Notes: generated by a model from the sequence alone, not told the origin. A stretch of DNA of 64,000 nucleotides from an uncultured cyanobacterium (GCA_963744145.1 CAVUSO010000001.1:1056001-1120000), one strand, 5' to 3'; positions 4,824-24,706 are shown, numbered from the stretch's first letter. A program made the numbers and translations.

Positions 4824-4833
4824 AAGGTTTGAT

Positions 4834-6690
4834 TTACTCTCTATTATTAGGTCCGTATTTCCATTGAACGAATTGCTCCAGTTCCTCCAGAGAAGGTTCC
4901 CATTTTTCAACTAAATCATTACGCACACTGGTTCTTACCCAGGGGTGTAAATCATATCGCTTTTCACCTACTATATCTCTAGTTTCTGCGATTAAATACC
5001 AACGGTTAAGTTCATTACTTGCTGTTGACCATTCAGATAAACCCCAACCTTGTGAAATTTCAGCTTGGGTAATACTAGCATTCTTTTGACTAAGAATATG
5101 TAAGAGTCGTTTAGAAGTCTGAGAAAGCGCTTTCCAAGCTGTTTCTAAGGCAAATTTATAAAAGATTTGCACTTCTCCACTTGCTTCTTCTAAAGCAGAT
5201 AGAACTGGGTCGATAGCATCTTGATTATCTACTAAACCAACAACAAAATGTAATGCTAGTGGTGCACCATAAGAAAATTCATGGATACGGTGTAATTCCT
5301 CTTCTGTTGCTTGGATAAGAGCTGGTATTTGTTTATAATTTGCTTCATCAAGTAAAAGTTTTTTTGACCAGATTTCATCTAATCCTGTGATGGGAAGCAA
5401 TTTAACAAATGTAGATTTAGCTTTGACCCGACTGGTTAAAAGCATTCGACTAGGGTTAAGTATTTTGGGGATTTTAGCTAATATATCTGAATAATCTGAT
5501 GTTTCCGCATTGTCTAAAACTATCAGTCGTTTTTTCTCTCTTAGATGTTGCTGAATCCGATTTTCTGAGTTAGAGCATTGTAGTTGAATCGCTATTTCTT
5601 CTACAAATTTATCCCAAGTAAGTGATGCCGATCGCTGACTTTTACTAATTTTACTATCTACTAACTCTGTATCTCTTGCTGTTACCCACAATACATCAGC
5701 AAAAATCTTTTGATCTAAAGCTTTTTTTGCGATCGCTTTTGCTGCTTCTGTTTTCCCATACCCAGGACTACCGCTTAAACAAAATATTGATAACTCTTCG
5801 GGAGATTTCAAATAGTTGATAATTTCGGTGACTAGATCATCTCTTCCCCATACGATTCGACATAGACGATCGGGGATAAATTTTCCTTTGATTTCTGTTT
5901 GTTTTTGAGTATCAATGTAGTTGGTGCTGTTTCCTTGCCAAAAATTAATCTCTGTTCCACTATGAAAATGTACTGGACGCTGAGGATAAGTTTGAAACTG
6001 AGGATGGTTCTGAAATTCAGTTACTACTCCACTGGCAATATCTATATTATTAATATATTTACCAATCCCATAACGTTCCGGTTTTAATACTTCTAATAAT
6101 AAATGAGTTAGCACTCCATGACCATCGACAGCATGAGCTATTTCTGAGTTACGACAAGCGGCGATGAAAGAACGGTTAACAGAAGTTTTTGCAGCTAGGT
6201 TATTGAATCTTTGTAATATCGATTCAGTCAATTGACCGCTGTGACAACAATCTAACCAAACTATCTGTTCAGGAACACTACTTTCCATCAGTTGATCTGC
6301 TAAAAAATCAAAGGGTACTCCCCATCGATCGTCTTCTGGTTTATAGTCACTTGTCCCTAAATACGCGATCGCTTTTCCATAATCATCATTAACTAAACCA
6401 TGTCCAGCAAAAAATAATAGGGCTGTTGTTTTCCCATCTTTAGCTTGAAATAACTCAAAAATCTTATCTTTGAGAGCTTTAGCTTTAACTAATCCTTTCT
6501 GATCTGTTTCAAATTTTCCCTCATCTTCTTTGTCCGGGACTATTGTCACTTCAAATTGACCATACTGTCTGAGTAAATCAGCGATCGCTTGTGCATCTAT
6601 AGCTGCGTAGTCCAGATGACAACTTTTACCATCACGATCTTTGAGGAAAGGATAGCGATTAATCCCTACTACCAATGCTTGTCGGGTCAT
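4834..6690 (-). CDS. Caspase (peptidase C14) - NB-ARC/STAND ATPase fusion with intact His-Cys dyad
   Basis: ALVVGINRY, LLFFAGHG, WLDCCHSG; Walker A GSPGYGKT, Walker B LIVLDNAE, LLTSR, GAPLAL, RYDLHPWVR (MHD-like). Confidence 0.9.
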   Translation of the reverse strand: MTRQALVVGINRYPFLKDRDGKSCHLDYAAIDAQAIADLLRQYGQFEVTIVPDKEDEGKFETDQKGLVKAKALKDKIFELFQAKDGKTTALLFFAGHGLVNDDYGKAIAYLGTSDYKPEDDRWGVPFDFLADQLMESSVPEQIVWLDCCHSGQLTESILQRFNNLAAKTSVNRSFIAACRNSEIAHAVDGHGVLTHLLLEVLKPERYGIGKYINNIDIASGVVTEFQNHPQFQTYPQRPVHFHSGTEINFWQGNSTNYIDTQKQTEIKGKFIPDRLCRIVWGRDDLVTEIINYLKSPEELSIFCLSGSPGYGKTEAAKAIAKKALDQKIFADVLWVTARDTELVDSKISKSQRSASLTWDKFVEEIAIQLQCSNSENRIQQHLREKKRLIVLDNAETSDYSDILAKIPKILNPSRMLLTSRVKAKSTFVKLLPITGLDEIWSKKLLLDEANYKQIPALIQATEEELHRIHEFSYGAPLALHFVVGLVDNQDAIDPVLSALEEASGEVQIFYKFALETAWKALSQTSKRLLHILSQKNASITQAEISQGWGLSEWSTASNELNRWYLIAETRDIVGEKRYDLHPWVRTSVRNDLVEKWEPSLEELEQFVQWKYGPNNRE

Positions 6691-6782
6691 TGACAATTCA
6701 CTACTTGTATTTTAGAATGGTTGCTAAATATTTTATATTTATTCAGCTCATCCAAGCTAGGATCTTAAACAAAACTTCAAGA
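6688..6782 (-). repeat. Copy 1 of a ~95-bp caspase-gene leader; direct repeat with 10511-10605
   Basis: 31-bp exact match TCCAAGCTAGGATCTTAAACAAAACTTCAAG (6751-6781 = 10574-10604), with similarity extending to the caspase ATG. Confidence 0.9.
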
Positions 6783-7619: not shown

Positions 7620-8021
7620 TTATGGAAATAAACCTAAACGAATCCATAATTGTCGCGCTATTAACTGTGCTGGAGAGTTCAGTTCCAGACTTCCAACTGT
7701 TACTCTACCTGTAGCTGTTATTCCGACAATTGTACCAGACTCGGTTTCCACTTGAAAATGCTCATCCCATCGATCTTGTCTTGGGTGAAAAAGGGAAACT
7801 TCCGTGTTAGAGGTAGAATCAAGTCCACTGATGTTAGTCCCTTTACGCAGGTTACAAGAGCGACAAGCTAATGCGAGGTTTGACATTTGATCGTTACCAC
7901 CTCGATAAAGTGGAAGGATATGTTCAACCTCAAAAGGGAAGTTAAATAGGATTTCAGGAGCGCGACAATATTCGCAACAATGATCAGCGCGATCGGCTAC
8001 TAGGGTATAATAAGGGTTCAT
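7620..8021 (-). CDS. HNH endonuclease (putative toxin)
   Basis: CCEYC...FEVEHILP...NLALACRSCNLRKG, LFHPRQDRWDEHF. Confidence 0.9.
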   Translation of the reverse strand: MNPYYTLVADRADHCCEYCRAPEILFNFPFEVEHILPLYRGGNDQMSNLALACRSCNLRKGTNISGLDSTSNTEVSLFHPRQDRWDEHFQVETESGTIVGITATGRVTVGSLELNSPAQLIARQLWIRLGLFP

Positions 8022-8380
8022 TAACTCAATTGTTGGATAAGAGCCGATGTCCGAAATGTAGCCGCTTTAAGTTCGGCTTCGACAAGATGTTCTAATTCTG
8101 CTTGTTGTTTGGCAGAAATAGTTTGTCCGCGATCGCGTGCTGCACGCCATAGGTTCATTAATTCTGATAATTGTTTTTGTTGTTCGGCAGTAAAAAATTC
8201 GTCAGGGTTAAAGCTTTGAATAATTAGTAATACTTTGAAGTTTGTTTCGCCTAACAAAGTAATCAAACCATCTAAAGCTTGACCTGCGGTTGTACCAACA
8301 GACTGTTGATCGCCAGCAATAGCGCGATAAGATTTCTCACCGTTGGGATTAAATACAGGTAGGATAGCAACTGTAGTCAT
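8021..8380 (-). CDS. Small protein translationally coupled to the HNH gene (putative antitoxin)
   Basis: TAATG stop/start overlap with the HNH gene; PDEFFTAEQQKQLSELM...ELEHLVEAEL. Confidence 0.7.
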   Translation of the reverse strand: MTTVAILPVFNPNGEKSYRAIAGDQQSVGTTAGQALDGLITLLGETNFKVLLIIQSFNPDEFFTAEQQKQLSELMNLWRAARDRGQTISAKQQAELEHLVEAELKAATFRTSALIQQLS

Positions 8381-8715: not shown

Positions 8716-8940
8716 GTGAATATGACTGAGTTACTTGAACGGGCGATCGCGCAATTGAAAACCTTACCAGCTAGTGAACAGGACGCGATCGCTACGATCA
8801 TACTGGAAGAACTTGAAGCAGAAATACAATGGGATGCAGCATTTGCGCGATCGCCAGATATTCTTGCCAAACTGGCAGCTAAAGCAATGACTGAGTACCA
8901 TGCTGGACAAACCCAAGAGTTAGATCCAGAAACACTGTGA
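8716..8940 (+). CDS. Type II antitoxin-like protein
   Basis: MTELLERAIAQLKTLPASEQDAIA...WDAAFARS; GTGA overlap with the downstream toxin. Confidence 0.8.
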   Translation: MNMTELLERAIAQLKTLPASEQDAIATIILEELEAEIQWDAAFARSPDILAKLAAKAMTEYHAGQTQELDPETL

Positions 8941-9206
8941 AATCACAAACAACCAGATCTTTTCGTCAAACATTTGCCGAACTACCAAAGCAAGTGCAAG
9001 ATCAAACACGCGAAGCTTATCGACAATTCAAACGAGATCCTAATTATCCTAGTCTTCACTTCAAAAAGGTACATCCAGAATTATCAATTTATTCGGCTCG
9101 AATTAATAAAAACTATCGAGCCGTTGGACAGTTAGATGGAGATATCGTCATTTGGTTTTGGGTTGGTTCACATACAGATTATGAGCGGTTACTCTCTCAG
9201 TTCTAA
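8937..9206 (+). CDS. RelE/ParE-like type II toxin
   Basis: FAELPKQVQ...YPSLHFKKV...YSARINKNYRAVG...WFWVGSHTDYERLL. Confidence 0.85.
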   Translation: MKSQTTRSFRQTFAELPKQVQDQTREAYRQFKRDPNYPSLHFKKVHPELSIYSARINKNYRAVGQLDGDIVIWFWVGSHTDYERLLSQF

Positions 9207-10290: not shown

Positions 10291-10513
10291 ATTATAGCGT
10301 GATCGCTATTCTTAACTTTCTGGTATTAACGTTATCTCCCATTGGATCGATTTTAAACCTATCAGCGTTACTGACAGGTAATCTTGTCACTTTGAAGTTA
10401 CCGTGAGTTTCGAGGAGATGAGCGATCGCCTCCGCATCAGAAGCCGGTCTTTCCAAATGTTCTTTGATAACAGGATATCGGTTAATCTCAACTACTAATG
10501 CTTCTCACTTCAT
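10291..10513 (-). pseudogene. Truncated caspase N-terminus
   Basis: MK*EALVVEINRYPVIKEHLERPASDAEAIAHLLETHGNFKVTRLP...AITL*; homologous to the starts at 6690 and 18041. Confidence 0.85.
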
Positions 10514-10605
10514 TGACTATTCACTACTTGTATTTTAGAGTATTTGCTGACTATTCTATATTCATTCAACTCCTCCAAGCTAGGATCTTAAACAAAACTT
10601 CAAGG
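10511..10605 (-). repeat. Copy 2 of the caspase-gene leader; overlaps the stop codon of 10600-11385
   Basis: Direct repeat of 6688-6782. Confidence 0.9.
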
Positions 10606-11385
10606 ATTATTAGTTTGTGAAGGGTTATTCGCATCGTCCCACAGTTGTTTAATTCCTTTGTACAAGCCATCATAATATTTTTGGTCTTGATAGCGGGTAA
10701 TAAAAATTACAATGCTTTCATGGGTTGGCTTAAACTCCGATATTAAAGGAGAAATCCTTGCCCATCCTTTAGGTGTTTCTGGATCGACGATCCAAATATT
10801 GCAAGTGGGAAAAGCATCATAAAGAGCATAATGTAACTGTTGCGGGTAAGTTTTTTTTAATTGATCTAGCTGGTCAGTAAAATTCTTTACATCTTGCTTT
10901 AAATCATTCAGCGATCGCTTCGTAAACTCTGCATAACTTTCAGCCATTTTACTATCAGGATCGAAAATCAAAAATTTTATTTTTAACTTGGAATTATTTT
11001 TCAAAGCTTCGTCAATATATACGCTCAATCCTTGACGTACAGCAGTAGAATAGGTTGCGGCTTTAATATAAATAGTATCTTGAACCAAATCCCAAACTTT
11101 ATTAATATCTTTATTAGCAGGTACTTCTCTCCTTCTTAAATATACTGATTCCACTGGTAAACTAATCGCTTTTTGCAATTTAACAATCACCCGTTCAATT
11201 AATTCTTCTTGCAAAAAATTTTTATACAGAGTTTCCACAACTCCGATTGCTAAGGTTGCTGACCCAGCATTGCTCAAGAAATCTTTTGCATATTGATAGC
11301 TACTCGGTATTAATGCTGAAATTAGCATCATCACCAAGCCTACTAAAATAATGACAGCACCTAAGAATTTATGAACAGTTTTCAT
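10600..11385 (-). CDS. Two-TM protein with C-terminal DUF5919/inactive PLD-fold-like domain
   Basis: Two N-terminal hydrophobic helices; DTIYIKA, KIKFLIFDPDS, YDAFPTCNIWIVD, QLWDDA pattern. Confidence 0.6.
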   Translation of the reverse strand: MKTVHKFLGAVIILVGLVMMLISALIPSSYQYAKDFLSNAGSATLAIGVVETLYKNFLQEELIERVIVKLQKAISLPVESVYLRRREVPANKDINKVWDLVQDTIYIKAATYSTAVRQGLSVYIDEALKNNSKLKIKFLIFDPDSKMAESYAEFTKRSLNDLKQDVKNFTDQLDQLKKTYPQQLHYALYDAFPTCNIWIVDPETPKGWARISPLISEFKPTHESIVIFITRYQDQKYYDGLYKGIKQLWDDANNPSQTNNP

Positions 11386-11517
11386 CGGTTTTTATACCAA
11401 TAACTCACGAAATTGCACTTAATTAGTGAGGCAGCGGTGGGTTTATTATGCTGATCTGCCTTTACCAACATTGATCGGTAAACCTGCCCCCACCAACAGA
11501 TCAATTACTGAACCATA

Positions 11518-13014
11518 TTAACCTAATATTATTTTATCATTCACTCCTCGGCATAAAAATTCTCGTACCCTAGCAATAACTTCTGCTTCAGTGCAACGAC
11601 TAGGACGGTAAAATATTGAAATAATAGGATCTTGCAATGTATTGGTACTCTCCATATTTTTGAAATTTAATTCTGATTGATTAGCCTCTTTCTTGGTTAT
11701 TAGTGCTTTCACTGTTTCACCCGGAAGTTTATGCAACCAGACTCCTACCTCTGGATCATAAGTCTCTTCACCACATAGCCATTCAAACATTTTATCTAGT
11801 AAATAAGCATTCATCCGCTTGATGGTAAAGTCACCCCTAGCTTGCAATTGGTAGGGATAAAGACCAAACGTAATAATTTTTAAATCTTTGCCTTTTTCAC
11901 CATAGCTTTTTTCTAAATCACGATCTTTATCCTCTTTCAAATCCTTCAAATACTTGGCAACGGCAAATTGATTTTCTATTTTGGTTTCTGTTTTGGTTCC
12001 TATTTTGGGTTCTATTTTTGTTTCTATTTTGGGTAACTTTTTTTTGAGCTTACCCCATTGTATGCTTAAGTTTTCCAAGGAGCGAGAGCGATCGCTCACT
12101 CCACATATATCAGGCAAAACTTTCATGTATAGTTTCTTATACTCATTATCATGTTTCAGCAAATCATCATTATTCTCAATGAGTTCGTTAATATGAATCA
12201 GAATAAGATGCCTGCCGATCGCCCGACACTGAGGCATACTAGAATTAGTCAATAACCAGCGTACTTCTGTGAGTTTATTTAATTGCTTATCTTCACATTT
12301 TTGCTCGATCCAATCTCGTTTATCCGTAGTATCTGGCAGTTGGGTAGTTGTGCCTTGAATCATATCTGATAGAATGCGTTTAAAGTTGATCAGAATTTCT
12401 TTATACTCGGAGTCAAACACAAGCTTTTGCATACCGTCTTTGACAAAATTAGTGCTGACTAACTCAAGCAATTGCTCATTCATACAAGGTGAGAGCATCT
12501 TGGTGTCTTTACCAATTTTGACATCAACAATGCAATGAGTACAACCGATCGCGATCCGTTTAGATAGAATAGAAGCATAAACAAACGGAAAATTAGTCAT
12601 CAGGTTCGTAGCACGACGAGCATCCATCAACACTTTATCAACGGGTGCTAAAGCGTCTGTTGGCTGACAAATTACGCCTTGTTCTTTTTTACATTCCTGC
12701 ACGATCGCTTCTGCATCGGTAGGAAAAGATAAACCACCACTTTCTAAAATATCCACTGTGCCACAGCTACCACCTTTAGAGGGAAGCTTGGTAACGTACA
12801 TCTTTTTATCTCCCTTTTTGTTATTTTCGCTTGCAGCTACCATCAGCCAGAGATAGCCAAAAATAGGAGTGATATTGGCAACGCATCCTGTTGATGCTAC
12901 ATCCCATCGCTGGGCAATATTTTCGCTTTCCCAAAGTTTTGACAATTGATCAGCTAGTCCCGATCGAGCCATTTCTTTAGTAAATTCATTGAGATTGAGT
13001 TTAATTTCGCTCAT
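11518..13014 (-). CDS. Divergent thymidine/pyrimidine-nucleoside phosphorylase (NP-II, glycosyltransferase family 3) homolog
   Basis: DVASTGCVANIT, GTVDILES, LAPVDK...ARR, ASILSKRIAIG, VDVKIG, LLTN..PQCRAIG and DPEVGVWLHKLPGETV align in order with DeoA/Pdp motifs. Confidence 0.8.
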   Translation of the reverse strand: MSEIKLNLNEFTKEMARSGLADQLSKLWESENIAQRWDVASTGCVANITPIFGYLWLMVAASENNKKGDKKMYVTKLPSKGGSCGTVDILESGGLSFPTDAEAIVQECKKEQGVICQPTDALAPVDKVLMDARRATNLMTNFPFVYASILSKRIAIGCTHCIVDVKIGKDTKMLSPCMNEQLLELVSTNFVKDGMQKLVFDSEYKEILINFKRILSDMIQGTTTQLPDTTDKRDWIEQKCEDKQLNKLTEVRWLLTNSSMPQCRAIGRHLILIHINELIENNDDLLKHDNEYKKLYMKVLPDICGVSDRSRSLENLSIQWGKLKKKLPKIETKIEPKIGTKTETKIENQFAVAKYLKDLKEDKDRDLEKSYGEKGKDLKIITFGLYPYQLQARGDFTIKRMNAYLLDKMFEWLCGEETYDPEVGVWLHKLPGETVKALITKKEANQSELNFKNMESTNTLQDPIISIFYRPSRCTEAEVIARVREFLCRGVNDKIILG

Positions 13015-15782
13015 TTTTTTTCTTCCTGATGTTGAATAATTTTGTCTGGATGGTTTTGCAGTTGGATTAAAATACCGTCAACTTCTGGACGCAGATTTGT
13101 TCCCCGTGCCCCAAGGATAATCTTGTCAAAAACGTCCTTATATGCTTCTTCAGTTTTTGACTGATCGGGAACTTTGGGCATAACTTTTTCCAAATGCCAT
13201 GCTGAAGCTAGAAAAGCAAAAATCGAAGCCCAAGGATCGATATCTGGAAACTTGGAGGAATTGAGGCAATAGGCAGACAGCGCCCATCGGAGTTCTACCA
13301 TATCTAGCTTGCAGGTTTTGAGAGCAAATCGGCGGATCGTCGCGATCGCTTTGAGGGCGTTCCCGATCGGCAAAATCAATGCTTGAGACGCGGCGAGATC
13401 GGGCTTGATTAACTGAGCCACAAAAAATTCTGCACCATTTCCCTCAAATTCCACTGCCCGAAGCGCTAAATCAAGCAGGTGATAATGAAGCTTGTCTTGG
13501 CTACCTTGCGGCAATAGATTAGCCAGATTGACCAAAGAGGGAGTCAAGTGATGATTCCAGATTTCTACTTCCAGTTTGGCGAAGTCATAAGCCACCATGC
13601 CCCGATCCTGCGATCGCTCGAAGTCAATTAACCAACCCACCTGTTCCTGTTCGCTACCAAAGAGTATATTTTGCAGGTTAAAGTCGCCGTGAATAGTTCC
13701 TATATGAGCAGATAGGGTGTAGTGATAGGGAATTTTGGAGCGATCGCCAAAATAATCAAACGGGTTGGGCAATTTGTCTTTAATTCCTGGTAATTTTTCC
13801 AGCAGTTGATTAATTTCCTCACCCTTTGTTGAGAGGGCATCCTTTGTTAAAATGACCTTCTCTGCCAGGGCTACACTGAAAATCTTGTCTTGCATCTTCT
13901 TAACTTCTTGGCTGCGATCGTCCAGACACACCAGCACCTCCACCGGCATTCCCGGACGAATCCAAGTCGCACCAAACCGTTGACAAATATCTCTACCTCT
14001 GCCCCGCAGCTTGATGCGAACTCCCAGATCGGGATGGGCTAACATAACAGAACCTTCACCAAACTCCCCTTCTTGGGCGCTAACTTCTAACAACTGCCAG
14101 CCACAGAGCAAGATTTTCTCAGCATTTTGAAACTTTTGGCGATCGCCCCAAGAGGAAATATCTTCTTTGCCGGTTTTAATATCTTCTTTGTCGGTTTTCT
14201 TTTGCCTTTCCAGTTCAAACGATGCCAGAGTCCAAGCAGATTTTTCTTTGTACCCCTGAGCAATATAGGATTGCAGAGGCTTCACCTTACGCTCTTTGCC
14301 TTCGCCAGATAGATTAGCACTGTCGCTGGGGATCTCTAAATCGTCAGCAGAAACAAATTCTAAGGGAATCAGAACACCCGATAGAGGTGGTAGCGTGTTA
14401 CCTAGCCACTGCCACAAAGGAAGTTTTTCCGTTGAGAGTTGAGATTGGGCTATTCCAGAGTGAGAAAGGGGTTTGAGGACTTTTTCGAGGGTATTTTGAA
14501 TGCGACTGACGAGGAAATCTCCGCCTGTCGGTTGGTTGAGTTGTTGCTTCATCAAGTCATCCAGGGGACGCAAGCGCTGGTAGTCTTCTGGGAAACCAGC
14601 CAGAGAATACATCAGTGCGCCGGTGGGAATTTGCTCGCTGTTGCTGGGACTGACAACGGGTTTGCGGATGATGGCGGCGGCGTAGCTGTTGAGTCGGGGC
14701 TGGATCACTTGTTGATAAGCAAAATATTCTCTCTGGATGCTCAACCATGAACCAATTTTCATAAACCGGGTAGCCTGGTTTTTGGGCTTTAAGAAAAAAG
14801 TGGCTTGTGCGGCTGACTTGCCAGAGGTGAGCAGTTTGACGAGTTCGACTTCATCTCCACTAGGAAATAAGGTAGCAATCAGTGTCAAGAGGGAATCTCC
14901 CTTCGGGCTTTTATCCAGAGGTGGGGTCAAGCCAAGTTGTTTGAAGAATTTTTTGCCAAGGGGAGTGCTGATGTCAATTTTGAACTGGTTAGTAAAGGGA
15001 TTATCTTGATATGCGCTGTATAAGGTTTTAGCCGTTTCTTCTAAGTGATGTTCCAAACTGAGGTAGTGGAGAGGCTCGATCTGTTTTTCAACTTCATTAG
15101 CATTCTGTTGGGTAGAGCTATCATTATCATCTCTATGATGGGTTTGGTTTTTGTAGAAGCACCAAGATGCTCCATAGGATAAGCCTTTCTCTAGGTATTT
15201 GAGTTCTTTAATACCTGTAAATAAGAAAGAGGGAATTTCTGGATATTTCTGAGAAAGAATGTGGATGGCACGGTATCCCATGATTTTCCATTTTTCCTCT
15301 TCCTCTTCCTTTGGAATAAAATCAGTCAGGGTGGGTTTCCACTCAAAATCGACTATAAATGCCGCAATATGAGGGCGATCGCGTTCTACCTGGTCAAAGG
15401 TTATTGTAGAGGCAATTAATTCGTAACTAGGCTCTGTATTATTGCTAGGAATCCAAAGCGGTGGTGCTTTGACATCAAAGACTAATGATAAGCTGTTTAG
15501 GTTTAGACAAAATCCTTTTAAAATCTCTTCCAGATCACTATCACGATCATCACACTTGATTTTTTTGAGACAGTAATATTTGCCAATTTTTTTATCATCT
15601 GTCTTAAAATCTCGGACTATATATATATTTTTTTCGATGTCGAAAGTAACGTAGTTATTATAGTCGTCAAAAACATAAATAACTGGTTTGAGACCACCCA
15701 GGGTAATATAAAAGCTCCGGTATAGGCTCTTTTGGATAGCTTTGATATCATCTGGAATTAAATGGGACAATAGCGATGTCAT
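13011..15782 (-). CDS. Receiver (REC) domain fused to an APH/choline-kinase-like phosphotransferase (TCAD9-like)
   Basis: REC: IYVFDD, FIVDFEW, PEIPSFLFTG, GASWCFYK; kinase: SGKSAA, FMKIG, REY, IHGDFNLQNIL, WLIDFE, YDFAKLE. Confidence 0.8.
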   Translation of the reverse strand: MTSLLSHLIPDDIKAIQKSLYRSFYITLGGLKPVIYVFDDYNNYVTFDIEKNIYIVRDFKTDDKKIGKYYCLKKIKCDDRDSDLEEILKGFCLNLNSLSLVFDVKAPPLWIPSNNTEPSYELIASTITFDQVERDRPHIAAFIVDFEWKPTLTDFIPKEEEEEKWKIMGYRAIHILSQKYPEIPSFLFTGIKELKYLEKGLSYGASWCFYKNQTHHRDDNDSSTQQNANEVEKQIEPLHYLSLEHHLEETAKTLYSAYQDNPFTNQFKIDISTPLGKKFFKQLGLTPPLDKSPKGDSLLTLIATLFPSGDEVELVKLLTSGKSAAQATFFLKPKNQATRFMKIGSWLSIQREYFAYQQVIQPRLNSYAAAIIRKPVVSPSNSEQIPTGALMYSLAGFPEDYQRLRPLDDLMKQQLNQPTGGDFLVSRIQNTLEKVLKPLSHSGIAQSQLSTEKLPLWQWLGNTLPPLSGVLIPLEFVSADDLEIPSDSANLSGEGKERKVKPLQSYIAQGYKEKSAWTLASFELERQKKTDKEDIKTGKEDISSWGDRQKFQNAEKILLCGWQLLEVSAQEGEFGEGSVMLAHPDLGVRIKLRGRGRDICQRFGATWIRPGMPVEVLVCLDDRSQEVKKMQDKIFSVALAEKVILTKDALSTKGEEINQLLEKLPGIKDKLPNPFDYFGDRSKIPYHYTLSAHIGTIHGDFNLQNILFGSEQEQVGWLIDFERSQDRGMVAYDFAKLEVEIWNHHLTPSLVNLANLLPQGSQDKLHYHLLDLALRAVEFEGNGAEFFVAQLIKPDLAASQALILPIGNALKAIATIRRFALKTCKLDMVELRWALSAYCLNSSKFPDIDPWASIFAFLASAWHLEKVMPKVPDQSKTEEAYKDVFDKIILGARGTNLRPEVDGILIQLQNHPDKIIQHQEEKK

Positions 15783-15801
15783 GTTGATAAATTCACCTTA
15801 A

Positions 15802-16374
15802 TCAAAACTTATCTTTATTTTCGTGCAAGTATTTAAATGTATCAAACATTAGTTGTTTTTCTTCTTTTCTGTTTGTTTTACCACTAATTGTTAAATCTTC
15901 AAATTGTTTCCAATTAAAATCAGGATCGGTTGGATTTCTTGAACAACACATATCAGGCTTTTCATTAGGTTTATCTCCAGTTGCATAAGCAATGACATCT
16001 TCAATATCATGAATAGTTACTTCAAATTCATCTAGCTCAGTTTTGCGAAAGATTCGCTCTCCCAAATCCCTTCTTTCTGGTTTTCCCGGGCTGGCAAACC
16101 AAAATATTTTGTCAGCTTGAATTTTACTATCTGTCCATATTTCTTCATTACTAGAGTGAATAAATACCACTAACATTTTCGGTAATTGTTTTATTTCATT
16201 CTCATCCAGATTCCCTTCAGTTTTAGGTTTATGTTTCTTGATTTTACCTATATCTGAAACCACATAAACTTCAGTAAATTTACTAGGCAAAATAATTTCA
16301 CTCCATTTCTTCCATCTGTCGATAACGCTATCAACCAAGCAGAATGTTAGTATATTTGTGTTTGCCGATGTCAT
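15802..16374 (-). CDS. Hypothetical protein, probable degenerate stand-alone receiver domain
   Basis: Strand pattern FCLVD / LVVFIH / IFWFASPG / IFRK fits a REC fold with Asp replaced by His; operonic spacing 17-19 bp. Confidence 0.5.
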   Translation of the reverse strand: MTSANTNILTFCLVDSVIDRWKKWSEIILPSKFTEVYVVSDIGKIKKHKPKTEGNLDENEIKQLPKMLVVFIHSSNEEIWTDSKIQADKIFWFASPGKPERRDLGERIFRKTELDEFEVTIHDIEDVIAYATGDKPNEKPDMCCSRNPTDPDFNWKQFEDLTISGKTNRKEEKQLMFDTFKYLHENKDKF

Positions 16375-16391
16375 AAGTCAATTTTCTCCTT

Positions 16392-18041
16392 TTACTTTTC
16401 TTTTTCATTAATAAAAGAAATAGCAACTAATCTAAGTGTATCCTCTTCCATGTAAATTGAACTAGGGCTAAAAAAACCTTTGTCGCTAATCAACAAATTC
16501 ATCCACAAGCTTATTATTGCTTCTCTTGTATTACCAACAGGTTTAGGAGTATAAATATTTTTCGCCAGAGCGGATACTTTTTTAGCTAAACTTTCCGTTT
16601 CTCTTGGGGCAGGCTCATCAGCAGGCCATTTAAAGACAATGTTTAATGCAGTTCCCTTGTACTGGAAGAACGCTTTGCTTACCATAGATGTTTCTGCTGA
16701 ATCCCGTTGCTGAAATAAATGAAAAAACAATTGACATAAAGCGATCGCTGATGACTGAGCTGTGTCTACATCTTGCCGATGAAATAAAGGTGATTTTGCT
16801 GCACTGAGATCTTGCCAGTCAACCCTTTGAGTCAGAAATTGTATATCCATATCTTTCCAAGCTAGACGGTGTGCCATAAGTGCTAATAAATAAGCTGCTC
16901 CAACTGAAATATGGCGACTTCTTTTAGGATTATCTTGGCCTAAAAAATAACTACCACAAAGATGCTTAAGGGATTCATGTAAGTTCTTAACAGAATTTTC
17001 ATTCCACCAATGCTCAGGAAAAGTAAATCCAAGAGCTTTTTGAATTTCTTCTTTATATTTATCAACCTCATATTTAATGTCAGCGTTAGTCTGACTTTCT
17101 TGAAAATGTTTAGCGATTTTTTGAGATTCATGTTCCAATATAAAGTCTTTCTTAACATCCGATGCTGAAAACCAGTTAGCTGTTGAATTCCATAGTTGTT
17201 TCAGTGTTATTTCTATAGAACTAGAATATGAGTAGATTGAATCAGGAACACCTCCATTTTTTGTAAGAATAATAGGATGATCACTATTTCTTACCATTGG
17301 GCGTTGAGGCTTATCAAAATTTTTTTCTACTATAAAATTTTCATCCGGTCTGTCTTCAATAAACTCTTTAAGTATATGGCTAGTAATCCAATCACGAGAC
17401 TTTGATAATTTAGGGTTAAGACCTTCGATAAGAGCTTTGACTAGGGGGCTACGATCATCTGCATCAGCATAGAGTGGCTCTTCTACGTTGGATGAGACAA
17501 TCCAGCAGCGATCGCGCCCTGGTTTATCTTCATCATCTTCAGGAAATTCCAATAGTTCTCCACTATGGCCACAAACTAGCCAAACAACTTGTTGGGGAAC
17601 AGGACTTTTTTTCAGCAATCCACGCAACCATTGGAGAGAAACGCCCCACGCTGGCTTACCTTTGCTATTTTCGCTTTTAGTATCGCTAGTTGCTAGAAAT
17701 CCTTCAAAGTTACCTGACTGGTTTGTTCGGCGAAGACCGATTCCGGTAAAAAATAGCAGGGCTGTATCAGGTATACTTTCTTTGGCTGCGAATAAATCTG
17801 TAATGGCAGTTACCAAATCTTTTTGCCTTACCAATCCATTAGGATCGAATTGCCATTCATCGAGTCCAAACGGCAGTCGCTTGACTTCAAAGCCGCCATA
17901 TATTTCCAAGAGACGGGCGATCGCTTCTGCATCTCTAACAGGCGTAGTTAATTTCGGAGTAAGGCCATCCTTATCCTTGAGCTGGGGATACTTATTTATA
18001 CCGACAACTAATGCTTGTCTCCTCATGTCTGCTACATCCAT
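16392..18041 (-). CDS. Pseudo-caspase (dyad mutated) fused to an uncharacterised C-terminal domain, possibly a degenerate histidine-kinase/GHKL fold
   Basis: ALVVGINKY...DAEAIARLL; FTGIG replaces FAGHG and LVCGHSG replaces LDCCHSG; ~280-aa unknown C-terminus. Confidence 0.8.
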   Translation of the reverse strand: MDVADMRRQALVVGINKYPQLKDKDGLTPKLTTPVRDAEAIARLLEIYGGFEVKRLPFGLDEWQFDPNGLVRQKDLVTAITDLFAAKESIPDTALLFFTGIGLRRTNQSGNFEGFLATSDTKSENSKGKPAWGVSLQWLRGLLKKSPVPQQVVWLVCGHSGELLEFPEDDEDKPGRDRCWIVSSNVEEPLYADADDRSPLVKALIEGLNPKLSKSRDWITSHILKEFIEDRPDENFIVEKNFDKPQRPMVRNSDHPIILTKNGGVPDSIYSYSSSIEITLKQLWNSTANWFSASDVKKDFILEHESQKIAKHFQESQTNADIKYEVDKYKEEIQKALGFTFPEHWWNENSVKNLHESLKHLCGSYFLGQDNPKRSRHISVGAAYLLALMAHRLAWKDMDIQFLTQRVDWQDLSAAKSPLFHRQDVDTAQSSAIALCQLFFHLFQQRDSAETSMVSKAFFQYKGTALNIVFKWPADEPAPRETESLAKKVSALAKNIYTPKPVGNTREAIISLWMNLLISDKGFFSPSSIYMEEDTLRLVAISFINEKEK

Positions 18042-18082
18042 TACAATTACAATTGGTATGGTATCTCAACATTAACACGATT

Positions 18083-18568
18083 ATGTCTCATTATGAATCT
18101 GAAGCCTATCCATCTGCTACATCGACTCCTGCTGCCACCAGTACACTATTAGCTCTGTTACTGGCTCTGAAAAACCTAGAATCCCATCTCAACAAAAATG
18201 AACTAGCACAACTCTATGAAATAGGCGAACAACTAAAACTTGACCCAGATGATTGGGAGTTTATCTATGATGGGTTAAAAAGCATTGTTGAAAGCAACAC
18301 TTCTCTCAAGGAAGCTTTTCAATCTGCATACGCTCGCGTCCTAGATGACGATGAGAGTGTTATTAGGAAAGATGTGATCTCTTCATTGGAGATTCGCGGT
18401 TATGTCGATAATGAACAAGATTTGGTCAGTAGAGCAGTTATTTATATTACAACTAGGTTACTTAAAAGTGACGATCTGCAAACCACAGCCAGAAACCTAA
18501 ACCTACCTTTTTCGATTACGGATACGGATAGGGACTTCAGAACAATCTCCATAATAGAACGTAGATAA
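18083..18568 (+). CDS. Caspase/CHAT-associated small helical protein, paralog 1
   Basis: TLLALLLALKNLE...EIGEQLKLDPDDWEFI shared with 18759-19199; divergent from a caspase start. Confidence 0.75.
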   Translation: MSHYESEAYPSATSTPAATSTLLALLLALKNLESHLNKNELAQLYEIGEQLKLDPDDWEFIYDGLKSIVESNTSLKEAFQSAYARVLDDDESVIRKDVISSLEIRGYVDNEQDLVSRAVIYITTRLLKSDDLQTTARNLNLPFSITDTDRDFRTISIIERR

Positions 18569-18581
18569 GGAGAATCGGCTG

Positions 18582-18693
18582 ATTCAGCATCCTGTACCGC
18601 ACTCATTAAATGTTGAGCCTCACTCATCGGCGTTTTCTTAAAAAGGTAGCAATTGATACCAACCACTAATGCTTGTCGCTTTATCTCACCCAT
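18582..18693 (-). pseudogene. Truncated caspase N-terminus
   Basis: MGEIKRQALVVGINCYLFKK...HLMSAVQDAE, after which homology ends. Confidence 0.8.
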
Positions 18694-18758
18694 ATCGACT
18701 TATATCATCCATATAGACTAAAATTGACCTAACTCATTTATGATACCACCATTAGTTT

Positions 18759-19199
18759 ATGGACACAATCTTTCGCGACAAAACATTGCTAGCCCTCTTA
18801 TTAGCTTTGAGAAACCTGGAAGACCCACTTAGCCAATTTCAACAGGCCCAGCTACATGAGGTAGGTGAACAACTAAAGCTTGACCCAGATGATTGGGAGT
18901 TTATTGAAGAGGGGTTGCTGGCTGTTGTTACTAGCAATACATTGCTCAATAAAGAGTTTGAAACTGCCAAAGCTAAATTAGATTCTGTGGATAATATCCA
19001 AGAACTCCTACCTACTGACAACGATATAGATGAGAAGATTTTTCTCAAGATAGAGAGACGTGGGAATAACACCGAACAAGAGGAAAATAGGCCACCGATT
19101 GTAAAAATAACTTGTAAGTTTTTAAAAGATGATGATCTAGCCAAAATAATCAAAAAATCAAGTTGGATTGAGCGAGTTTTGAACAGCCTAAATTATTAA
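18759..19199 (+). CDS. Caspase/CHAT-associated small helical protein, paralog 2
   Basis: TLLALLLALRNLE...EVGEQLKLDPDDWEFI; 49 bp upstream of the CHAT gene and divergent from the caspase remnant. Confidence 0.8.
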   Translation: MDTIFRDKTLLALLLALRNLEDPLSQFQQAQLHEVGEQLKLDPDDWEFIEEGLLAVVTSNTLLNKEFETAKAKLDSVDNIQELLPTDNDIDEKIFLKIERRGNNTEQEENRPPIVKITCKFLKDDDLAKIIKKSSWIERVLNSLNY

Positions 19200-19248: not shown

Positions 19249-22200
19249 ATGGTTAAACTTGTCTTAAATTTCAGACAGGGAAGTTTTGAAAAGGGATTTG
19301 ATGCGACCCTGGAAATAAGCGATCGCGATCGCATTTCCACAATACAGGGTCAACTACCACCACAGCCCACCCTACCCAAAATCTATGAAGATTGGCAAAA
19401 TATCTTTAATACATACGATTTAGGAGAGGAAGAAATTGTCAAAGAAAAAGCAAAACCTCTGCGCGAGGATTTGAACACCTGGCTAAATTCGGAATTGTTT
19501 AGTCCGATTAAATCTAAATTAGCAGAAATTTTCACATCATCTGAAGAAGTTCGCTTGTTAGTTCAAGCCGAAAACTATCAACTCTGGCGACTTCCTTGGG
19601 AGCAATGGGACTTTTTCGCTAATTATCCCCAACTTGAAATAGCATTGAGTTCCCCAGTATCTAAATCTATCAAAAGATGTCCCCTGAATCAACCAAAAAC
19701 TAAAATTAGAATTTTATGTATTCAATGTAACACTAAGAAAATTGATACGGAAATTGATATCAAAGCCTTAAAAACTTTTTTCCAAGATCAGGCAGATATA
19801 AAATATGTTAGCAAGCCTAGTAAGAAAGAACTGTCTCAATATTTGAGAAATAAAAAAGGTTGGGATATGATCTTTTTTGCGGGTCATTCTAGCACGGATA
19901 GCCAGCAAAGAGGTATCCTTGAAATTAACGATGAAGAAAATTTGACAATTCCTGAATTAAAGTATGCTTTAAGAGCAGCGATCGCTCTGGGCTTAAAATT
20001 AGCAATTTTCAATTCCTGTGATGGTTTAGGATTAGCCAGAAACTTAGCTGACTTGCAAATCCCTAGCGTAGTTGTTATGCGAGAACCAGTTCCCGATCAA
20101 GTAGCTCAAGTATTTGTCGAAGAATTTCTTAAACAATTTGCCAACAATGAATCATTATATGCTTCAGTGCGACAAGCACGGGAAAGTTTAAAAACCCTAG
20201 AAAATCAGTATCCTTGTGCTAGCTGGTTACCTGTAATTTGTCAAAATCCAGCCGAAGATGCGATCGCTTATGAGGGGTTACTAAATGGATTAAATACCGA
20301 TACAAACTGGGAAGGAGCTTGTCGTACTCTACTCACTCTGGATGCGATTAAACGGCTCGAATCAAATATGTTGACAAATAAAAAGGGTATAGAAATTGAC
20401 GATATTTATGTTCCCCCTAACTTAGATTTAGTCAAACGATTTAAGAAAAAAGATCCAAAGGAGTTATCCCAGGAAGAACAAGAACAGCAAAAAAGAGAAA
20501 ATCAGTTTCTCGATATTTATCAAGAGGATAATTTTTTCAAACAAGTAATCGAGTCGGGAAGAAGTATTTACAGCCAAGGGCGCAGATTAGCAATTATTGG
20601 CGAAGCAGGGATCGGCAAAAGCCTATTTTTACAACGGCTCGGACGAATGGATTGTCTGGGAGTCAAACACTACCCATCAAGTTGTGATCTGGGTATCTTT
20701 AGCTGACTTGAAAACAGCGCAAAGTCTGGAAGACTATCTCCAGCAAAATTGGCTTGAACGCGCCAAACAACAAGTAAAGATTCCCGCAAATAATCAAGAA
20801 GATTTAAGATTGCTATTTGCATCAAGACGAGTATTCTTGCTGTTAGATGGAGCCGATGAAATGCCTGTCCGCATTGGTAATCCTCTCGAAGTAATTGTCA
20901 GACAGCTCGCTACTTCTGAGTGGATTTCTCAAGCAAGGATTTTACTAACTTGTCGCGTCAATGTCTGGGAAGCCAACCAAAATATTTTGCAAAATTTCGA
21001 TGTTTACCGTCACTTAGATTTTAGCGATCGCGCTCAATATGGTCAACCGATTAACCAAGTAGAAGCCTTTATTTCTGGTTGGTTTAATGGTAGTAAACAA
21101 CAAAGAAAAATTGGTCTAAATTTGCGCCAAGAGTTAGAGCAAGAAGGCAAGCAAAAAATTAAAGATTTGACCAAAAATCCCTTGCGGTTATCATTGCTAT
21201 GTTTAGTGTGGGAAGAGCAGGGGAGGTTGCCAGATACTAAAACAGAACTTTATCAGCAATTTGTCGAGGAAATTTATAAATGGAAGCAACAGCAATTGAA
21301 GCTAGATAAATCCAAAATAGAAAATTTAAACAAAAAATTAGCAGAGTTAGCAAAACAAACGTTAGATCAAAAAAACATATTACCTCGACAAAAATTGTCA
21401 GACAATCTACCTCTAGCAGAAATAGAACTACTGTCTCCATTTCGGATTTCTCATGTTTTAGCAAGGTTAACTCTTGGTAAGGATTTTGACTTAGCACTAA
21501 AGTTGGGTTGGTTGAATCAGGTAGGAGTCTCGCCAAACAAAACAGAGGAACCCATCTATGCCTTTTTGCATCCGAGTTTCCAGGAATATTTTGCGGCACA
21601 AGCTATTGCTTTTGATCAGTGGAATTATTTTTTAGACAGCGGCAACGAGATTCATCGAGTTTTTGAGCAGAAGTGGCGGGAAGTAATTTTGTTTTGGTTT
21701 GGACGACCTAGTGAGAAAAATATTGATAATAAATACTGGAAAGAAAGTTTTATCACAAGGATTTGGAAATATAACGATTTTTGTAAGGGATTTTATGCAT
21801 TTAAAGCACGGCTTTTAACGGCGGAAGCTTTGGGAGAATTTAGAGATTGTAGTGATGAAATAGCAGAAAAAATAATAGCTGAAGTCGTTAAATTTAGCAT
21901 TTGCTATTATATTGATGAAAATGATTTTTCCTTACCTGAACAGGCAATAAGAGAGAGAGGTTATGCAGCACTATTGCAAATAAATAGTAGCAAATTTAAA
22001 GATTATTTAGTCAAACTTCTAAGTCGTCTTCCGCTAGATCACATAGTTAGTCGTTCTGAGATTGCTGATGTTCTAGCACAATTAGATCCTGGTAATCAAG
22101 AAGCTATTAATACTCATCTTGATTTGATCAAAACTGTTAAGACTGGAGATTATAACTTTGCCTGTGGGCTTATTCGCTATAGTTCAATGAAAAAAATCCA

Positions 22201-24134
22201 GCAAATAGCTCATGGGAATGCTGTTGCTATTAAAGAGTTAAAACAGCTATTATATAGGTCTCAAGATGAGCATGAGCGGGCGCGTATTGCTACTACTTTA
22301 GTAATAATTGCTAGTAAGGAAATAGCAGAAAAAGGTTTGAACACCTTAATTGAGTTATTATATAATTGCCTACCAGATTATGTTTTATCTTATTTAGATT
22401 ATTTTGAAATGATTGCCATTAATAATTTCGATCCTGATACAAAAATAATGGTGGTTGAACGACTGACTAAATTACTTAATCCTATTGAATACAGACAATT
22501 GCCTAGTGAGTGGAAATTGAATAGACACAAAATTCCTTGGTATGAAAACTCTTCACATCAAAATACTTATAGTCATCTTAAAATTTCCGCTTTTACACAG
22601 TATTTACGGATTAGTATAGTTGCAGCTCTTAGTTTATTAAAAATTCAGCCAGAACATAAAGCTGCGGTCAGAACATTGGTTGAGTTCCTAGCAATTGATC
22701 CCAACAAGTATCCTTTAATCCAGCATATTGATGCGAATCATATCTGTCAGATAATTGCTTATCAAATAGAAAACTCTCGTATTGATAATCAAACGCTTAT
22801 CAATACCTTGAGTGAATATATCACAACGATTGATGATCAAGATGCTTTGTTGTGGTCCTGTTAACCTTTTAGGAAAAGTAGCCGCCGGTACAAATGATGA
22901 AGGTGCTATTATTGCCCTAAATTCACAACTACAGACAACCTCGGAGTCTAACCGGAAAATATCTTATACTTTTCCGAACATAGCTCATACTTTGGGAAAA
23001 GTAAACCCAGGTAACCCTGATGCTATACAAGCTCTTACTAAATTAATACGTTTTCCAATTACTAATCGTCATGAGGTTTCTGAACTTTCCGAATCGATAA
23101 GATTACTTGGAGCAATCGATCTAAACAATCCAGAAGCCACTAAAGCTCTAATTAAATTGCAACAGTTTGCTCAATCTAGATTGGATGATTTTATTAAACG
23201 GTTTGACATCAAACCGGAAAATGTGGATCAGGCTCTCTCTGAATTGTTGAGCGAATACTGTAAAAAATTTGGGTACGAATCTAAAATAACAGAAGTTGTA
23301 AGAGAAGCTTCAGGAATACATACACTATTCATCGAAAATATTAAAATTTTTGCAGAGATCAATCGTGAAAATACAGAATCCATAAACTTTTTAACAAAAC
23401 TGCTAGCCCATCCTGAAGAACGAATCCGTTTTGAAGCAGCTTTGAGTTTGGCAAAAGTTGACCCAGGCAATTTAAACGCACTCAATGCACTGGTTGTAAT
23501 ATACCGTACTGCTAAGACAAAATACTATTTTGAATTTGATGGTTCGTTACCTAATCAGTTACTAGAAATTAGAGATCCTCAACGCCGTAAAAATCTGATT
23601 GGAGCTATCACTGAAATAATAGAGACTGAACCACCATCCGAATGCTATTATATTGCTGAAGCTTTGGCTAAAGCCGATCCGGGAAATGACCGGGCAGTGA
23701 CAACCTTGCTCGATTACTTGCAAAATCCCCTAAATGACCCACTTAGAGCTAGCGCTACGAGAAAAATAATTAAAACTTTAAAAGCAACTTTGCGAGAAGA
23801 ACAATTTAAACAAATAGTAAGTAGATTTAAAAATCCTCTATTCGATGCCGAGAGTAACAATGATACAGAACAATTTGAAATCTACTATGAACTCTTCTTG
23901 CATTGTGCTGAAAATATTAGCTATCGTGACTTCTTTCAAGCTTTGCACTATAACTCGGGTTTCATTAGTAATATGAAACCCTCTACGCATGCACGAGTTA
24001 TAGCGATCATTATAGCAGGCGAAGCATGGATGAAGATGAGCAGTTGCGTATCTATAATCAAAAGGTTATTATTGTTTGTGTATAAACGGTTATATGCTGT
24101 GTGGATATTTATCATTCGTTTTTTAGACAGGTAA
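19249..24134 (+). pseudogene. CHAT protease - NACHT - HEAT-repeat NLR-like gene, copy 1, with two +1 frameshifts (~20643 and ~22858; real or sequencing error)
   Basis: Three overlapping ORFs collinear with intact paralog 25292-30457; CTCGGACGAATGG versus paralog CTCGGCGAATGG; one extra base in TGGTCCTGTT. Confidence 0.85.
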
Positions 24135-24394: not shown

Positions 24395-24706
24395 TCACCT
24401 TTGATAAACAGAAAGAGCAAAATCTAAGACTTCACGCTTGCGTTCCTCTGATAAACGGGAAACTACAGCATTTACCTGCTCAGATAGGGGCAGCCAACTC
24501 TTAGTTTTCGCTTTCCAAACCACAATTAACTGTTCAGATAATAGTGTACACAACGCAACAGTTTCCCCATCTTGATTGCTAAATTCAACTTCATACTCAT
24601 TATGATCAAAACACTCCACAATGGCTCCCTGAATCCCTGCAAGAAGATTATATTCAGGTAAATCTACTAATAACTCAATGACATCAAATAATTCTGGCTC
24701 AATCAT
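24395..24706 (-). CDS. DUF4926 protein (putative immunity/antitoxin)
   Basis: PELFDVIELLVDLPE..L.AG..GAIVE..YEVEFSNQDGET. Confidence 0.85.
   Translation of the reverse strand: MIEPELFDVIELLVDLPEYNLLAGIQGAIVECFDHNEYEVEFSNQDGETVALCTLLSEQLIVVWKAKTKSWLPLSEQVNAVVSRLSEERKREVLDFALSVYQR

Follow-up and report, generated by a model that had tools for sequence, protein, structure and literature searches.

A rare cyanobacterial gene cassette linking a predicted inactive caspase-fold protein to a TCAD9 kinase and a thymidine phosphorylase homologue, with a possible role in biological conflict

Background

Among described systems, the closest in layout to the locus considered here is Detocs, which comprises the sensor kinase DtcA, the receiver protein DtcB and DtcC, a receiver fused to a purine nucleoside phosphorylase (PNP) (Rousset et al., bioRxiv 10.1101/2023.01.24.525353). 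Two further points of reference are the vWA-MoxR-VMAP ternary conflict systems and the pseudo-orthocaspases. In the former, TCAD9 is described as an effector-side domain (PMC10910872), and active effector kinases of the APH type are mentioned as rare (Kaur et al. 2020, PMC7159879); the latter are a known class in cyanobacteria (Klemencic et al. 2019, PMC6426788). Here we describe a cassette of five genes (genes 1-5, proteins P0001-P0005) in a stretch of 64,000 nucleotides from an uncultured cyanobacterium, hereafter the window. Genes 1-4 of this cassette form a conserved unit defined by gene order and by a chain of domain fusions, and we tentatively interpret them as a conflict system built around a receiver-coupled kinase and a nucleoside phosphorylase homologue of the NP-II family. 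The components of the cassette, in the order of their transcription, are as follows:

Gene 1 (P0001), 16392-18041, minus strand: 549 amino acids; predicted pseudo-caspase, residues ~6-260, followed by a C-terminal domain (CTD), residues ~267-549
Gene 2 (P0002), 15802-16374, minus strand: 190 amino acids; stand-alone version of an N-terminal domain (NTD), adaptor-like
Gene 3 (P0003), 13011-15782, minus strand: 923 amino acids; predicted receiver-like domain, residues ~30-220, with a large insertion, and TCAD9/APH-type kinase, residues ~311-870
Gene 4 (P0004), 11518-13014, minus strand: 498 amino acids; divergent full-length homologue of thymidine/pyrimidine-nucleoside phosphorylases (NP-II)
Spacer between genes 4 and 5, 11386-11517, minus strand: 132 bp with an imperfect hairpin
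Gene 5 (P0005), 10600-11385, minus strand: 261 amino acids; membrane protein with a hydrophobic N-terminus

The open reading frame (ORF) coordinates bear out the co-directional arrangement noticed in a first-pass annotation of this DNA, with successive spacings from gene 1 to gene 5 of 17 bp, 19 bp, a 4-bp ATGA overlap between genes 3 and 4, and 132 bp. That annotation had likened the whole to Detocs, and one part of the likeness holds: in both cases a small operon contains a receiver fused to an enzymatic effector (gene 3 and DtcC, respectively), and in both an enzyme of the nucleoside phosphorylase type is plausibly the business end. The other two parts do not hold, since the cassette lacks both a detectable histidine kinase, the feature of DtcA, and a stand-alone receiver with an acceptor aspartate, the feature of DtcB. 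The two systems also differ in that the receiver of the cassette is fused to a kinase and that of Detocs to the phosphorylase, in that the phosphorylase of the cassette belongs to NP-II, with the thymidine phosphorylase fold, and that of Detocs has the NP-I PNP fold, and in the additional presence of a pseudo-caspase protein in the cassette.

The relationship to the ternary systems is of a different kind. The kinase domain of gene 3 is already known, being a member of the Pfam family TCAD9 (PF19974, 176 bits) that was named for the vWA-MoxR-VMAP systems, and those systems share with the cassette an enrichment in multicellular cyanobacteria and the occurrence of caspase-type modules and inactivated enzyme domains. 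However, no MoxR, vWA or VMAP component is present among the annotated ORFs of the window or of four related genome loci (L001-L004), and TCAD9 in the cassette follows a receiver-like domain and has an NP-II homologue as its partner, an arrangement which departs from the ternary systems as described. Our search of the literature found no described system with this combination of genes, although the neighbourhood tables that supplement Kaur et al. 2020 may list the cassette. Together with PADLOC, which yields just a weak caspase match, this agrees with the initial impression that the combination is not a described system.

Results and discussion

Gene order and domain fusions define a conserved four-gene unit

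The neighbourhood survey proposed at the outset, with the phosphorylase-like gene as bait, recovered four related genome loci, in three of which the order of genes 1-4 is retained (L001, L002 and L004, all from Oscillatoria). The fourth, a gammaproteobacterial locus (L003), ends inside the cassette and has the kinase fused to the phosphorylase homologue. The same fusion, with a phosphorylase homologue at the C-terminus of the kinase, is seen in nine of the 51 kinase relatives. In L001, L002 and L004, tblastn locates residues 1-143 of P0002 at the N-terminal end of the kinase ORF, in frame and continuous with the kinase, and a hidden Markov model (HMM) of this NTD matches the N-termini of 22 of the 51 kinase-family relatives. 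The NTD HMM further matches directly after the CTD in seven CTD-family proteins (P0109, P0111, P0113, P0122, P0130, P0133 and P0145), with E-values of 1e-18 to 1e-26. Thus, a chain of fusions, namely CTD-NTD, NTD-receiver-kinase and kinase-phosphorylase, links genes 1-4. By gene order and domain fusions alike, the conserved unit is genes 1-4, and their linkage is more than chance. An indirect observation in the same direction is that ten pairs of kinase and phosphorylase relatives, those of L001 and L004 among them, have longest contigs of equal size.

This unit is rare and is found mostly in filamentous cyanobacteria: in a protein collection of 5.8 billion the gene 4 family comprises 25 clusters and the gene 3 family 53. 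The window, L001, L002 and L004 each have an active caspase-STAND/WD40 gene at a distance of no more than ~5 kb from the cassette, and in L004 this gene falls within the same tight co-directional run as the cassette. The proposal of a conserved, co-transcribable cassette situated among NLR-like genes is supported by the retained order in three of the four loci and by the fusions. The L003 sequence carries, at 4-4992 and ahead of its kinase-phosphorylase fusion, a sigma-54 AAA+ regulator of the RtcR/PspF-like type (PADLOC, 1e-70) and a protein of 1041 amino acids that has no match in Pfam or PADLOC.

The pseudo-caspase protein and its C-terminal domain

Gene 1, whose translation probably starts at Met6, is placed in the caspase family by Pfam Peptidase_C14 (2.6e-07), and it reaches 43.5 bits against the NCBIfam model caspase_w_EACC1, which has a cut-off of 140. 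Its AlphaFold2 (AF2) model, with a mean predicted local distance difference test score (pLDDT) of 87.2, matches MALT1 and metacaspases in Foldseek searches at ~3e-08. The two catalytic motifs read FFTGIG and VCGHSG where the active neighbours have FFAGHG and DCCHSG, so that in the alignment the catalytic His is replaced by Ile and the Cys by Gly. Among six aligned cassette pseudo-caspase copies, two of them from a single L001 protein, the His position is I, Q or R in all six and the Cys position is G or S in five. By contrast, both residues are kept in all five neighbouring caspase-STAND/WD40 genes (window, L001, L002 and L004). Gene 1 is therefore predicted to be a caspase-fold protein that is catalytically dead. 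The caspase modules linked to the CTD form a single clade (support 92/95, 10 rows), and the active neighbours group elsewhere.

The orthologue of gene 1 in Oscillatoria sp. PCC 10802 (L001, 4315-6660) contains two tandem caspase modules, the first of which has the motif DCCYSG and a Gln in place of the His and clusters with the neighbouring active caspases, not with the CTD-linked clade. With the pseudo-orthocaspases of multicellular cyanobacteria gene 1 shares a p20-type caspase fold devoid of the His-Cys dyad. The main classes presented in PMC6426788, the YS and YN variants, lack C-terminal domains, unlike the gene 1 clade, which has I, Q, R or K at the His position, G, S or A at the Cys position, a specific CTD and an operon with a kinase and a phosphorylase homologue.

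The CTD, the C-terminal 280 residues of gene 1, constitutes a separate family, for which a search of a 1.84-billion library yields 70 representatives at E <= 1e-3, and only eight of 54 CTD-family proteins examined have a caspase N-domain. The N-domains of the remainder lack a Pfam match, with nothing relevant in 38 CTD-family proteins at E <= 0.5. Many of the N-domains in this family start with an 'hhhhDD' pattern that is receiver-like by eye, and their hhalign comparison with a receiver profile gives P 0.0028 over just 17 columns. Two histidines of the CTD, H304 and H355, are invariant or near-invariant in the family.

The first-pass annotation had described gene 1 as both a pseudo-caspase and histidine kinase-like; the former description stands with the replacement of His and Cys, and the latter finds no backing. 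Pfam HisKA and HATPase_c have no match in genes 1-5 at E <= 1, nor in sub-regions at E <= 10. An hhalign comparison of the CTD family with three histidine kinases of the same window returns E 0.49 and a probability of 0.1%, and a profile search of the PDB with the CTD gives 0 matches. When the complete gene 1 model is compared with PDB and BFVD by Foldseek, a search in which the caspase domain dominates, only caspase-type matches rise above noise; two rows named as viral 'histidine kinase' (E 0.042 and 0.11, probability 0.35 and 0.16) lie at noise level. The CTD is a domain of no known family.

The N-terminal domain of the kinase as a free-standing protein

The free-standing form of the NTD is common to a clade of seven clusters, the window included. 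Its invariant residues are R20, H73, G97, I108, R110 and P140. Searches of Pfam, the Atlas and the PDB found no match for it, and its hhalign comparison with a receiver profile gave a value of 0.21. Neither Pfam nor the Atlas nor hhalign lends support to the view that gene 2 is a degenerate receiver. As judged from the sequence comparisons, gene 2 is a detachable N-terminal domain of the kinase protein that was split off only in the clade of the window. A frameshift pseudogene was also considered as an explanation for gene 2 and was dropped, since the split NTD has been kept by inheritance across the clade of seven clusters and gene 2 is hence not a fresh pseudogene.

A receiver-like domain coupled to a TCAD9 kinase

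The kinase region of gene 3 matches Pfam TCAD9 at 1.7e-51, far above the cut-off of 40 bits, and Pfam APH at 24.2 bits, just passing the cut-off of 23.2; it also has a Pfam APH/Kdo match and displays the motifs HGDxxxxN and DFE. The kinase K, E, HGD, N and DF residues are kept in all 51 relatives. The receiver set, namely D39, D40, D145, T189 and K211 in P0003 numbering, is kept in at least 49 of the 51.

For structural comparisons we modelled the L001 orthologue, which includes the NTD and is 67% identical to P0003 (tblastn). The AF2 model has a pLDDT of 85.2 and a predicted template modelling score (pTM) of 0.82, and it places the L001 equivalents of the receiver set just where a receiver has them: D230 and D231 after strand 1, D332 at the end of strand 3, T375 at the end of strand 4 and K416 after strand 5. 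Foldseek retrieves the receivers PleD (4.3e-04), PorX and ARR1 (4e-04 to 3e-03). Hence, the N-terminal part of gene 3 is predicted from the model to be a receiver-like domain with all phospho-acceptor residues. This call depends on the structural model and the conserved residues and not on profile matches: Pfam Response_reg has no match in gene 3, and hhalign comparisons of the kinase N-region with the receivers of the window are weak (E 0.055, 0.074 and 0.011). The Pfam receiver match may be missing on account of an insertion of ~90 residues between strands 1 and 3. A PDB profile search with the alignment of NTD plus kinase gave nothing beyond coiled-coil noise.

For the kinase, the best Foldseek match is 5-methylthioribose kinase (8.6e-05), followed by maltokinase, APH(3'), choline kinase and PsiK, and by these nearest structural matches it is likely to be a small-molecule kinase. 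Both 5-methylthioribose kinase and maltokinase phosphorylate the anomeric carbon of a sugar. With these APH/ELK kinases (5-methylthioribose kinase, maltokinase, APH(3') and choline kinase), its best structural matches, gene 3 shares the HxDxxxxN loop, the Mg-binding Asp, the Lys-Glu pair and the bilobal fold; it differs from them in an identity of just 9-12%, in large insertions and in its receiver-like N-terminal module. The earlier reading of gene 3 as a receiver joined to an APH-type kinase is in this manner borne out by Pfam, the conserved residues, the AF2 model and Foldseek. The kinase gene (13011-15782) has a GC content at third codon positions of 0.44, compared with 0.24-0.34 in the four other cassette genes and a GC content of 0.385 for the window.

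A divergent thymidine phosphorylase homologue

Gene 4 is matched by the NCBIfam model Y_phosphoryl at 1.3e-15, and its family profile matches 1brw in the PDB at 1.5e-16, with structures of pyrimidine-nucleoside phosphorylase (PyNP) and thymidine phosphorylase at ~1e-16. The hhalign comparison of the family with three thymidine phosphorylases gives a probability of 99.6% and E 5e-24 over 345 columns. Residues 2-474 align collinearly with residues 38-409 of DeoA, spanning the alpha/beta core and the C-terminal domain. NCBIfam, PDB profile and hhalign searches are thus at one with the first identification of gene 4 as an NP-II thymidine phosphorylase homologue. A weak extra HMM stretch raised a circular permutation as a candidate, which the collinear hhalign alignment with DeoA rejects.

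Likeness to DeoA/PyNP and to the archaeal AMP phosphorylase consists of homology over nearly the full length and of the retention of T123, R171, S186 and K190 of DeoA, as T86, R133, S148 and K152 of gene 4; the equivalents of S86 and T87 are also kept. We take these to be phosphate- and nucleoside-binding residues, in line with the literature on DeoA/PyNP. R133, S148 and K152 are each shared by 90% or more of the 25 sequences of the gene 4 family. Gene 4 differs from DeoA/PyNP in an identity of ~30% over the core only, in lacking the first ~37 residues of DeoA, in the replacement of K84 and H85, and in family-specific insertions. All seven NCBIfam thymidine/pyrimidine phosphorylase models that matched score far below their cut-offs (269-570), Y_phosphoryl itself reaching 57 bits against a cut-off of 409. 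Gene 4 is never found with deoC or deoB. A tblastn search of plasmids returned canonical thymidine phosphorylases only.

Gene 5 as a clade-specific accessory

None of L001-L004 has gene 5, the phosphorylase homologue there being followed by unrelated genes, and the protein collection contains only two other clusters of it. One of these (62% identity) lies on an 8263-bp contig, a length shared by the contigs that carry the closest relatives of the kinase and of the phosphorylase homologue. Gene 5 is, therefore, a clade-specific accessory outside the conserved core. Its assignment to DUF5919 is not upheld: Pfam, including DUF5919 (PF19319), has no match at E <= 1, and the sole support is an Atlas lead (score 0.96) to a cluster with DUF5919 on 15% of its members. 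A PDB profile search gave nothing beyond coiled-coil noise. Its absence from all four related loci and its restriction to two other clusters likewise speak against the earlier casting of its product as the signal-reading effector of the system.

The 132-bp spacer that precedes gene 5 was described in the first-pass annotation as containing a repetitive extragenic palindromic (REP)-like repeat. Its 18-nt core, searched across the window with up to three mismatches, matches only itself, and a short-word BLAST of the whole spacer against the window gives only chance matches of 10-14 nt. The hairpin has z = -1.38, with equal folding in 16 of 200 shuffles, and is not unusual. With no second copy in the window and an ordinary hairpin, the suggestion of a REP-like repeat falls away. 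Rfam and tRNA scans of the cassette region were empty, and promoter and terminator scans performed no better on it than on shuffled sequence.

Proposed function and alternative explanations

We propose, at somewhat short of an even chance, that genes 1-4 act as one functional unit, a conflict or anti-virus system in which the kinase and the NP-II enzyme act jointly on a nucleoside or pentose phosphate, with gene 5 as an add-on. In such a system the dead caspase module and the CTD would serve as a sensor or adaptor, and the active caspase-NLR proteins of the adjoining genes might engage or cleave gene 1. The NTD would couple gene 1 to the receiver-gated kinase, and the kinase and the NP-II enzyme would act on a nucleoside or pentose phosphate in two linked steps. 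One option is a phosphorolysis that drains (deoxy)nucleosides; another is that an anomeric sugar kinase supplies the phosphorylase, which would build an unusual nucleoside. As a result the infected cell would stop growing, with gene 5, an add-on of the window's own clade, as a candidate membrane effector. A more specific scenario, which we regard as highly speculative, envisages a novel immune pathway with the dead caspase as a bait or partner of the adjacent NLR-type caspases, from which its release would allow the NTD to switch on a receiver-gated anomeric sugar kinase. The resulting sugar-1-phosphate and a base would then be joined by the NP-II enzyme into an unusual nucleoside, acting as an antiviral antimetabolite or second messenger, and gene 5 would read this product in the clade of the window.

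Several observations weigh against the proposal of a conflict system. Gene 4 is present in only four of 185,579 species genomes (L001-L004), and since three of these are from Oscillatoria, the conservation rests on few independent lineages. The set of genes upstream in L003 is different, with the RtcR/PspF-like AAA+ regulator and the 1041-residue protein and without a pseudo-caspase. The adjacency of caspase-STAND genes could be due to chance, because such genes are abundant in these cyanobacteria. The sensor or adaptor roles of the CTD of gene 1 and of the NTD are guesses because neither domain matches a known fold, and the cassette encodes no phosphodonor for the receiver. The equivalents of K84 and H85 of DeoA, which are presumably the catalytic residues, are replaced by V39 and A40 in gene 4. 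Given this loss and the scores far below the NCBIfam cut-offs, gene 4 may bind a ligand without catalysis. Finally, the check with PADLOC 2.0.0 models that had been envisaged for the cassette produced a weak caspase match and nothing else.

A phosphorelay like that of Detocs would require the CTD to be a cryptic histidine kinase, gene 2 a degenerate buffer receiver and gene 3 the receiver-effector, with genes 4 and 5 making and reading a nucleotide-derived signal. The gene 3 receiver-like domain, fused to an enzyme and with its acceptor set intact, fits this reading, as do the conserved H304 and H355. In addition, the second half of the CTD is predicted to consist of a helix, a hairpin, two helices and a hairpin, an arrangement open to interpretation as a Bergerat-like sandwich, the 'hhhhDD' start scored above is found in many CTD-family members, and the two viral rows in Foldseek carry the name of histidine kinases. 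Yet their probabilities mark them as noise, neither HisKA nor HATPase_c is detectable even at the relaxed threshold, the hhalign and PDB profile comparisons are equally negative, and H304 is placed by the AF2 model in a loop and not in a long helix of the DHp type. Furthermore, gene 2 shows neither a receiver signal nor a conserved acidic acceptor, its invariant positions including instead R20, H73 and R110, and it is the N-domain of the kinase in 22 relatives; gene 5, for its part, is not conserved. The three-part two-component skeleton that had been perceived in this operon thus gives way on two of its parts, the CTD having no histidine kinase likeness and gene 2 being a kinase N-domain and not a stand-alone receiver, and we consider a phosphorelay very improbable. 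A regulated metabolic operon, in which a receiver would control nucleoside or pentose salvage by a sugar kinase and a phosphorylase in series, as with MtnK and nucleoside phosphorylases, is also improbable, if less so. Metabolic small-molecule kinases are indeed the nearest folds of gene 3, gene 4 comes from a housekeeping enzyme family whose canonical member deoA sits with deoC and deoB, kinase-phosphorylase fusions are typical for consecutive steps of a pathway, and no defence model is matched. These points are countered by a distribution that is very patchy at both the cluster and the species-genome level (25 and 53 clusters; four genomes), by the obligatory association with a dead caspase module and with domains that belong to no known family, and by the position of the cassette among NLR-like, toxin-antitoxin and HNH genes. 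Moreover, TCAD9 is otherwise known from conflict systems, and no transporter or downstream catabolic genes are conserved alongside in the neighbourhoods of L001-L004.

In a third alternative the cassette serves the neighbouring caspase-NLR genes as their effector arm: the kinase would be a toxin, protein-directed or self-directed, gene 4 a non-catalytic ligand sensor, and the pseudo-caspase would be paired with, or cleaved by, an active caspase, freeing the CTD-NTD link and turning the kinase on. Pseudo-caspases pair with, or are cleaved by, active caspases in animal cell-death pathways, and an active caspase-STAND/WD40 gene adjoins the cassette in all four cyanobacterial loci, in L004 within the same tight run. 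The second caspase copy in the L001 gene 1 protein, which groups with the neighbouring active caspases, the caspase-gene remnants on both sides of the window's cassette (see below) and the loss from gene 4 of the two presumed catalytic residues can be added to this side. On the other hand, the CTD-joined pseudo-caspases form their own clade (92/95) and are not copies of each neighbour, and the caspase module is present in only eight of 54 CTD proteins. The kinase resembles small-molecule kinases and not protein kinases, and the nucleoside-binding residues of gene 4 and its fusion to the kinase fit catalysis equally well. We view this alternative as unlikely, and retain the joint action of kinase and NP-II enzyme in a conflict system as the working proposal.

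If the cassette is a conflict system, NP-II would be a second, structurally unrelated phosphorylase family among nucleotide-directed immune effectors, a receiver-gated small-molecule kinase would be at work in immunity, and the widespread and unexplained pseudo-caspases of multicellular cyanobacteria would acquire a concrete role. The chain of CTD-NTD, NTD-kinase and kinase-phosphorylase fusions offers an unusually clear interaction map, which renders the pathway directly testable. With their definition here, the CTD and NTD, two domains without a known family, become available for searches.

Caspase-gene remnants and the genomic neighbourhood

The surroundings of the cassette in the window include the following features:

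Caspase-NB-ARC (NLR-like) gene, 4834-6696, minus strand: Pfam NB-ARC and Peptidase_C14, with the His/Cys dyad intact; a candidate partner acting upstream of the cassette
HNH gene with a PADLOC PtuB match, 7620-8021
ParE-like gene, 8937-9206
Decayed caspase N-terminal fragment (tblastn), 10298-10516, minus strand: directly downstream of gene 5
Remnant of a caspase 5' end, 18580-18699, minus strand: upstream of gene 1, within a tandem duplication of ~650 bp
CHAT/NACHT/HEAT pieces, 19249-24134, plus strand
DUF4926/DUF6883 pair, 24395-25083
Intact CHAT-NACHT-HEAT gene, 25280-30457
WD40 protein, 32592-36176

This annotation confirms the previously noted location of the cassette among toxin-antitoxin pairs and NLR-like genes. 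Both flanks of the cassette carry debris of caspase genes. Upstream, the tandem duplication (17994-18916) copies the 5' end of gene 1 and is evident as direct repeats at 17994-18038 and 18652-18696 (76%) and at 18143-18276 and 18783-18916 (75%). The translation of the remnant at 18580-18699 begins MGEIKRQALVVGIN and then diverges, with tblastn confirming the caspase match. An ORF of 83 amino acids at 18442-18693 has a caspase-like start and is divergent thereafter. Downstream, the fragment at 10298-10516 is 44-53% identical to caspase domains (tblastn) and has an in-frame stop after 'MK'. At the corresponding position in L002, after the phosphorylase homologue, there is an intact caspase-NB-ARC gene.

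Among the further neighbours, the CHAT (19249-20706), NACHT (20597-22864) and HEAT/NCC-H (22812-24134) ORFs overlap on the plus strand, and the region 19249-24134 resembles a single CHAT-NACHT-HEAT gene split in three, the gene at 25280-30457 being its intact paralogue. The HNH protein (133 amino acids; window 7620-8380, minus strand) matches the PtuB models of PADLOC at 1e-10 and abuts an ORF of 119 amino acids without a match; no PtuA-sized partner lies beside it. An SxtJ-like protein adjoins a carbamoyltransferase at 36798-39186 on the minus strand. The release-factor ORF at 61006-61830 (plus strand) is matched by the PCRF model only from position 71 on, and it perhaps represents the downstream portion of a prfB gene that is read via a programmed frameshift. 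Lastly, the region 46131-56248 holds a dense canonical two-component cluster, consisting of a receiver-histidine kinase, a CHASE3-PAS hybrid kinase with Hpt, a single receiver, a receiver-OmpR-Hpt protein, an EAL protein and a PAS-histidine kinase, and its receivers and histidine kinases served as the reference profiles for the receiver and histidine kinase comparisons described above.

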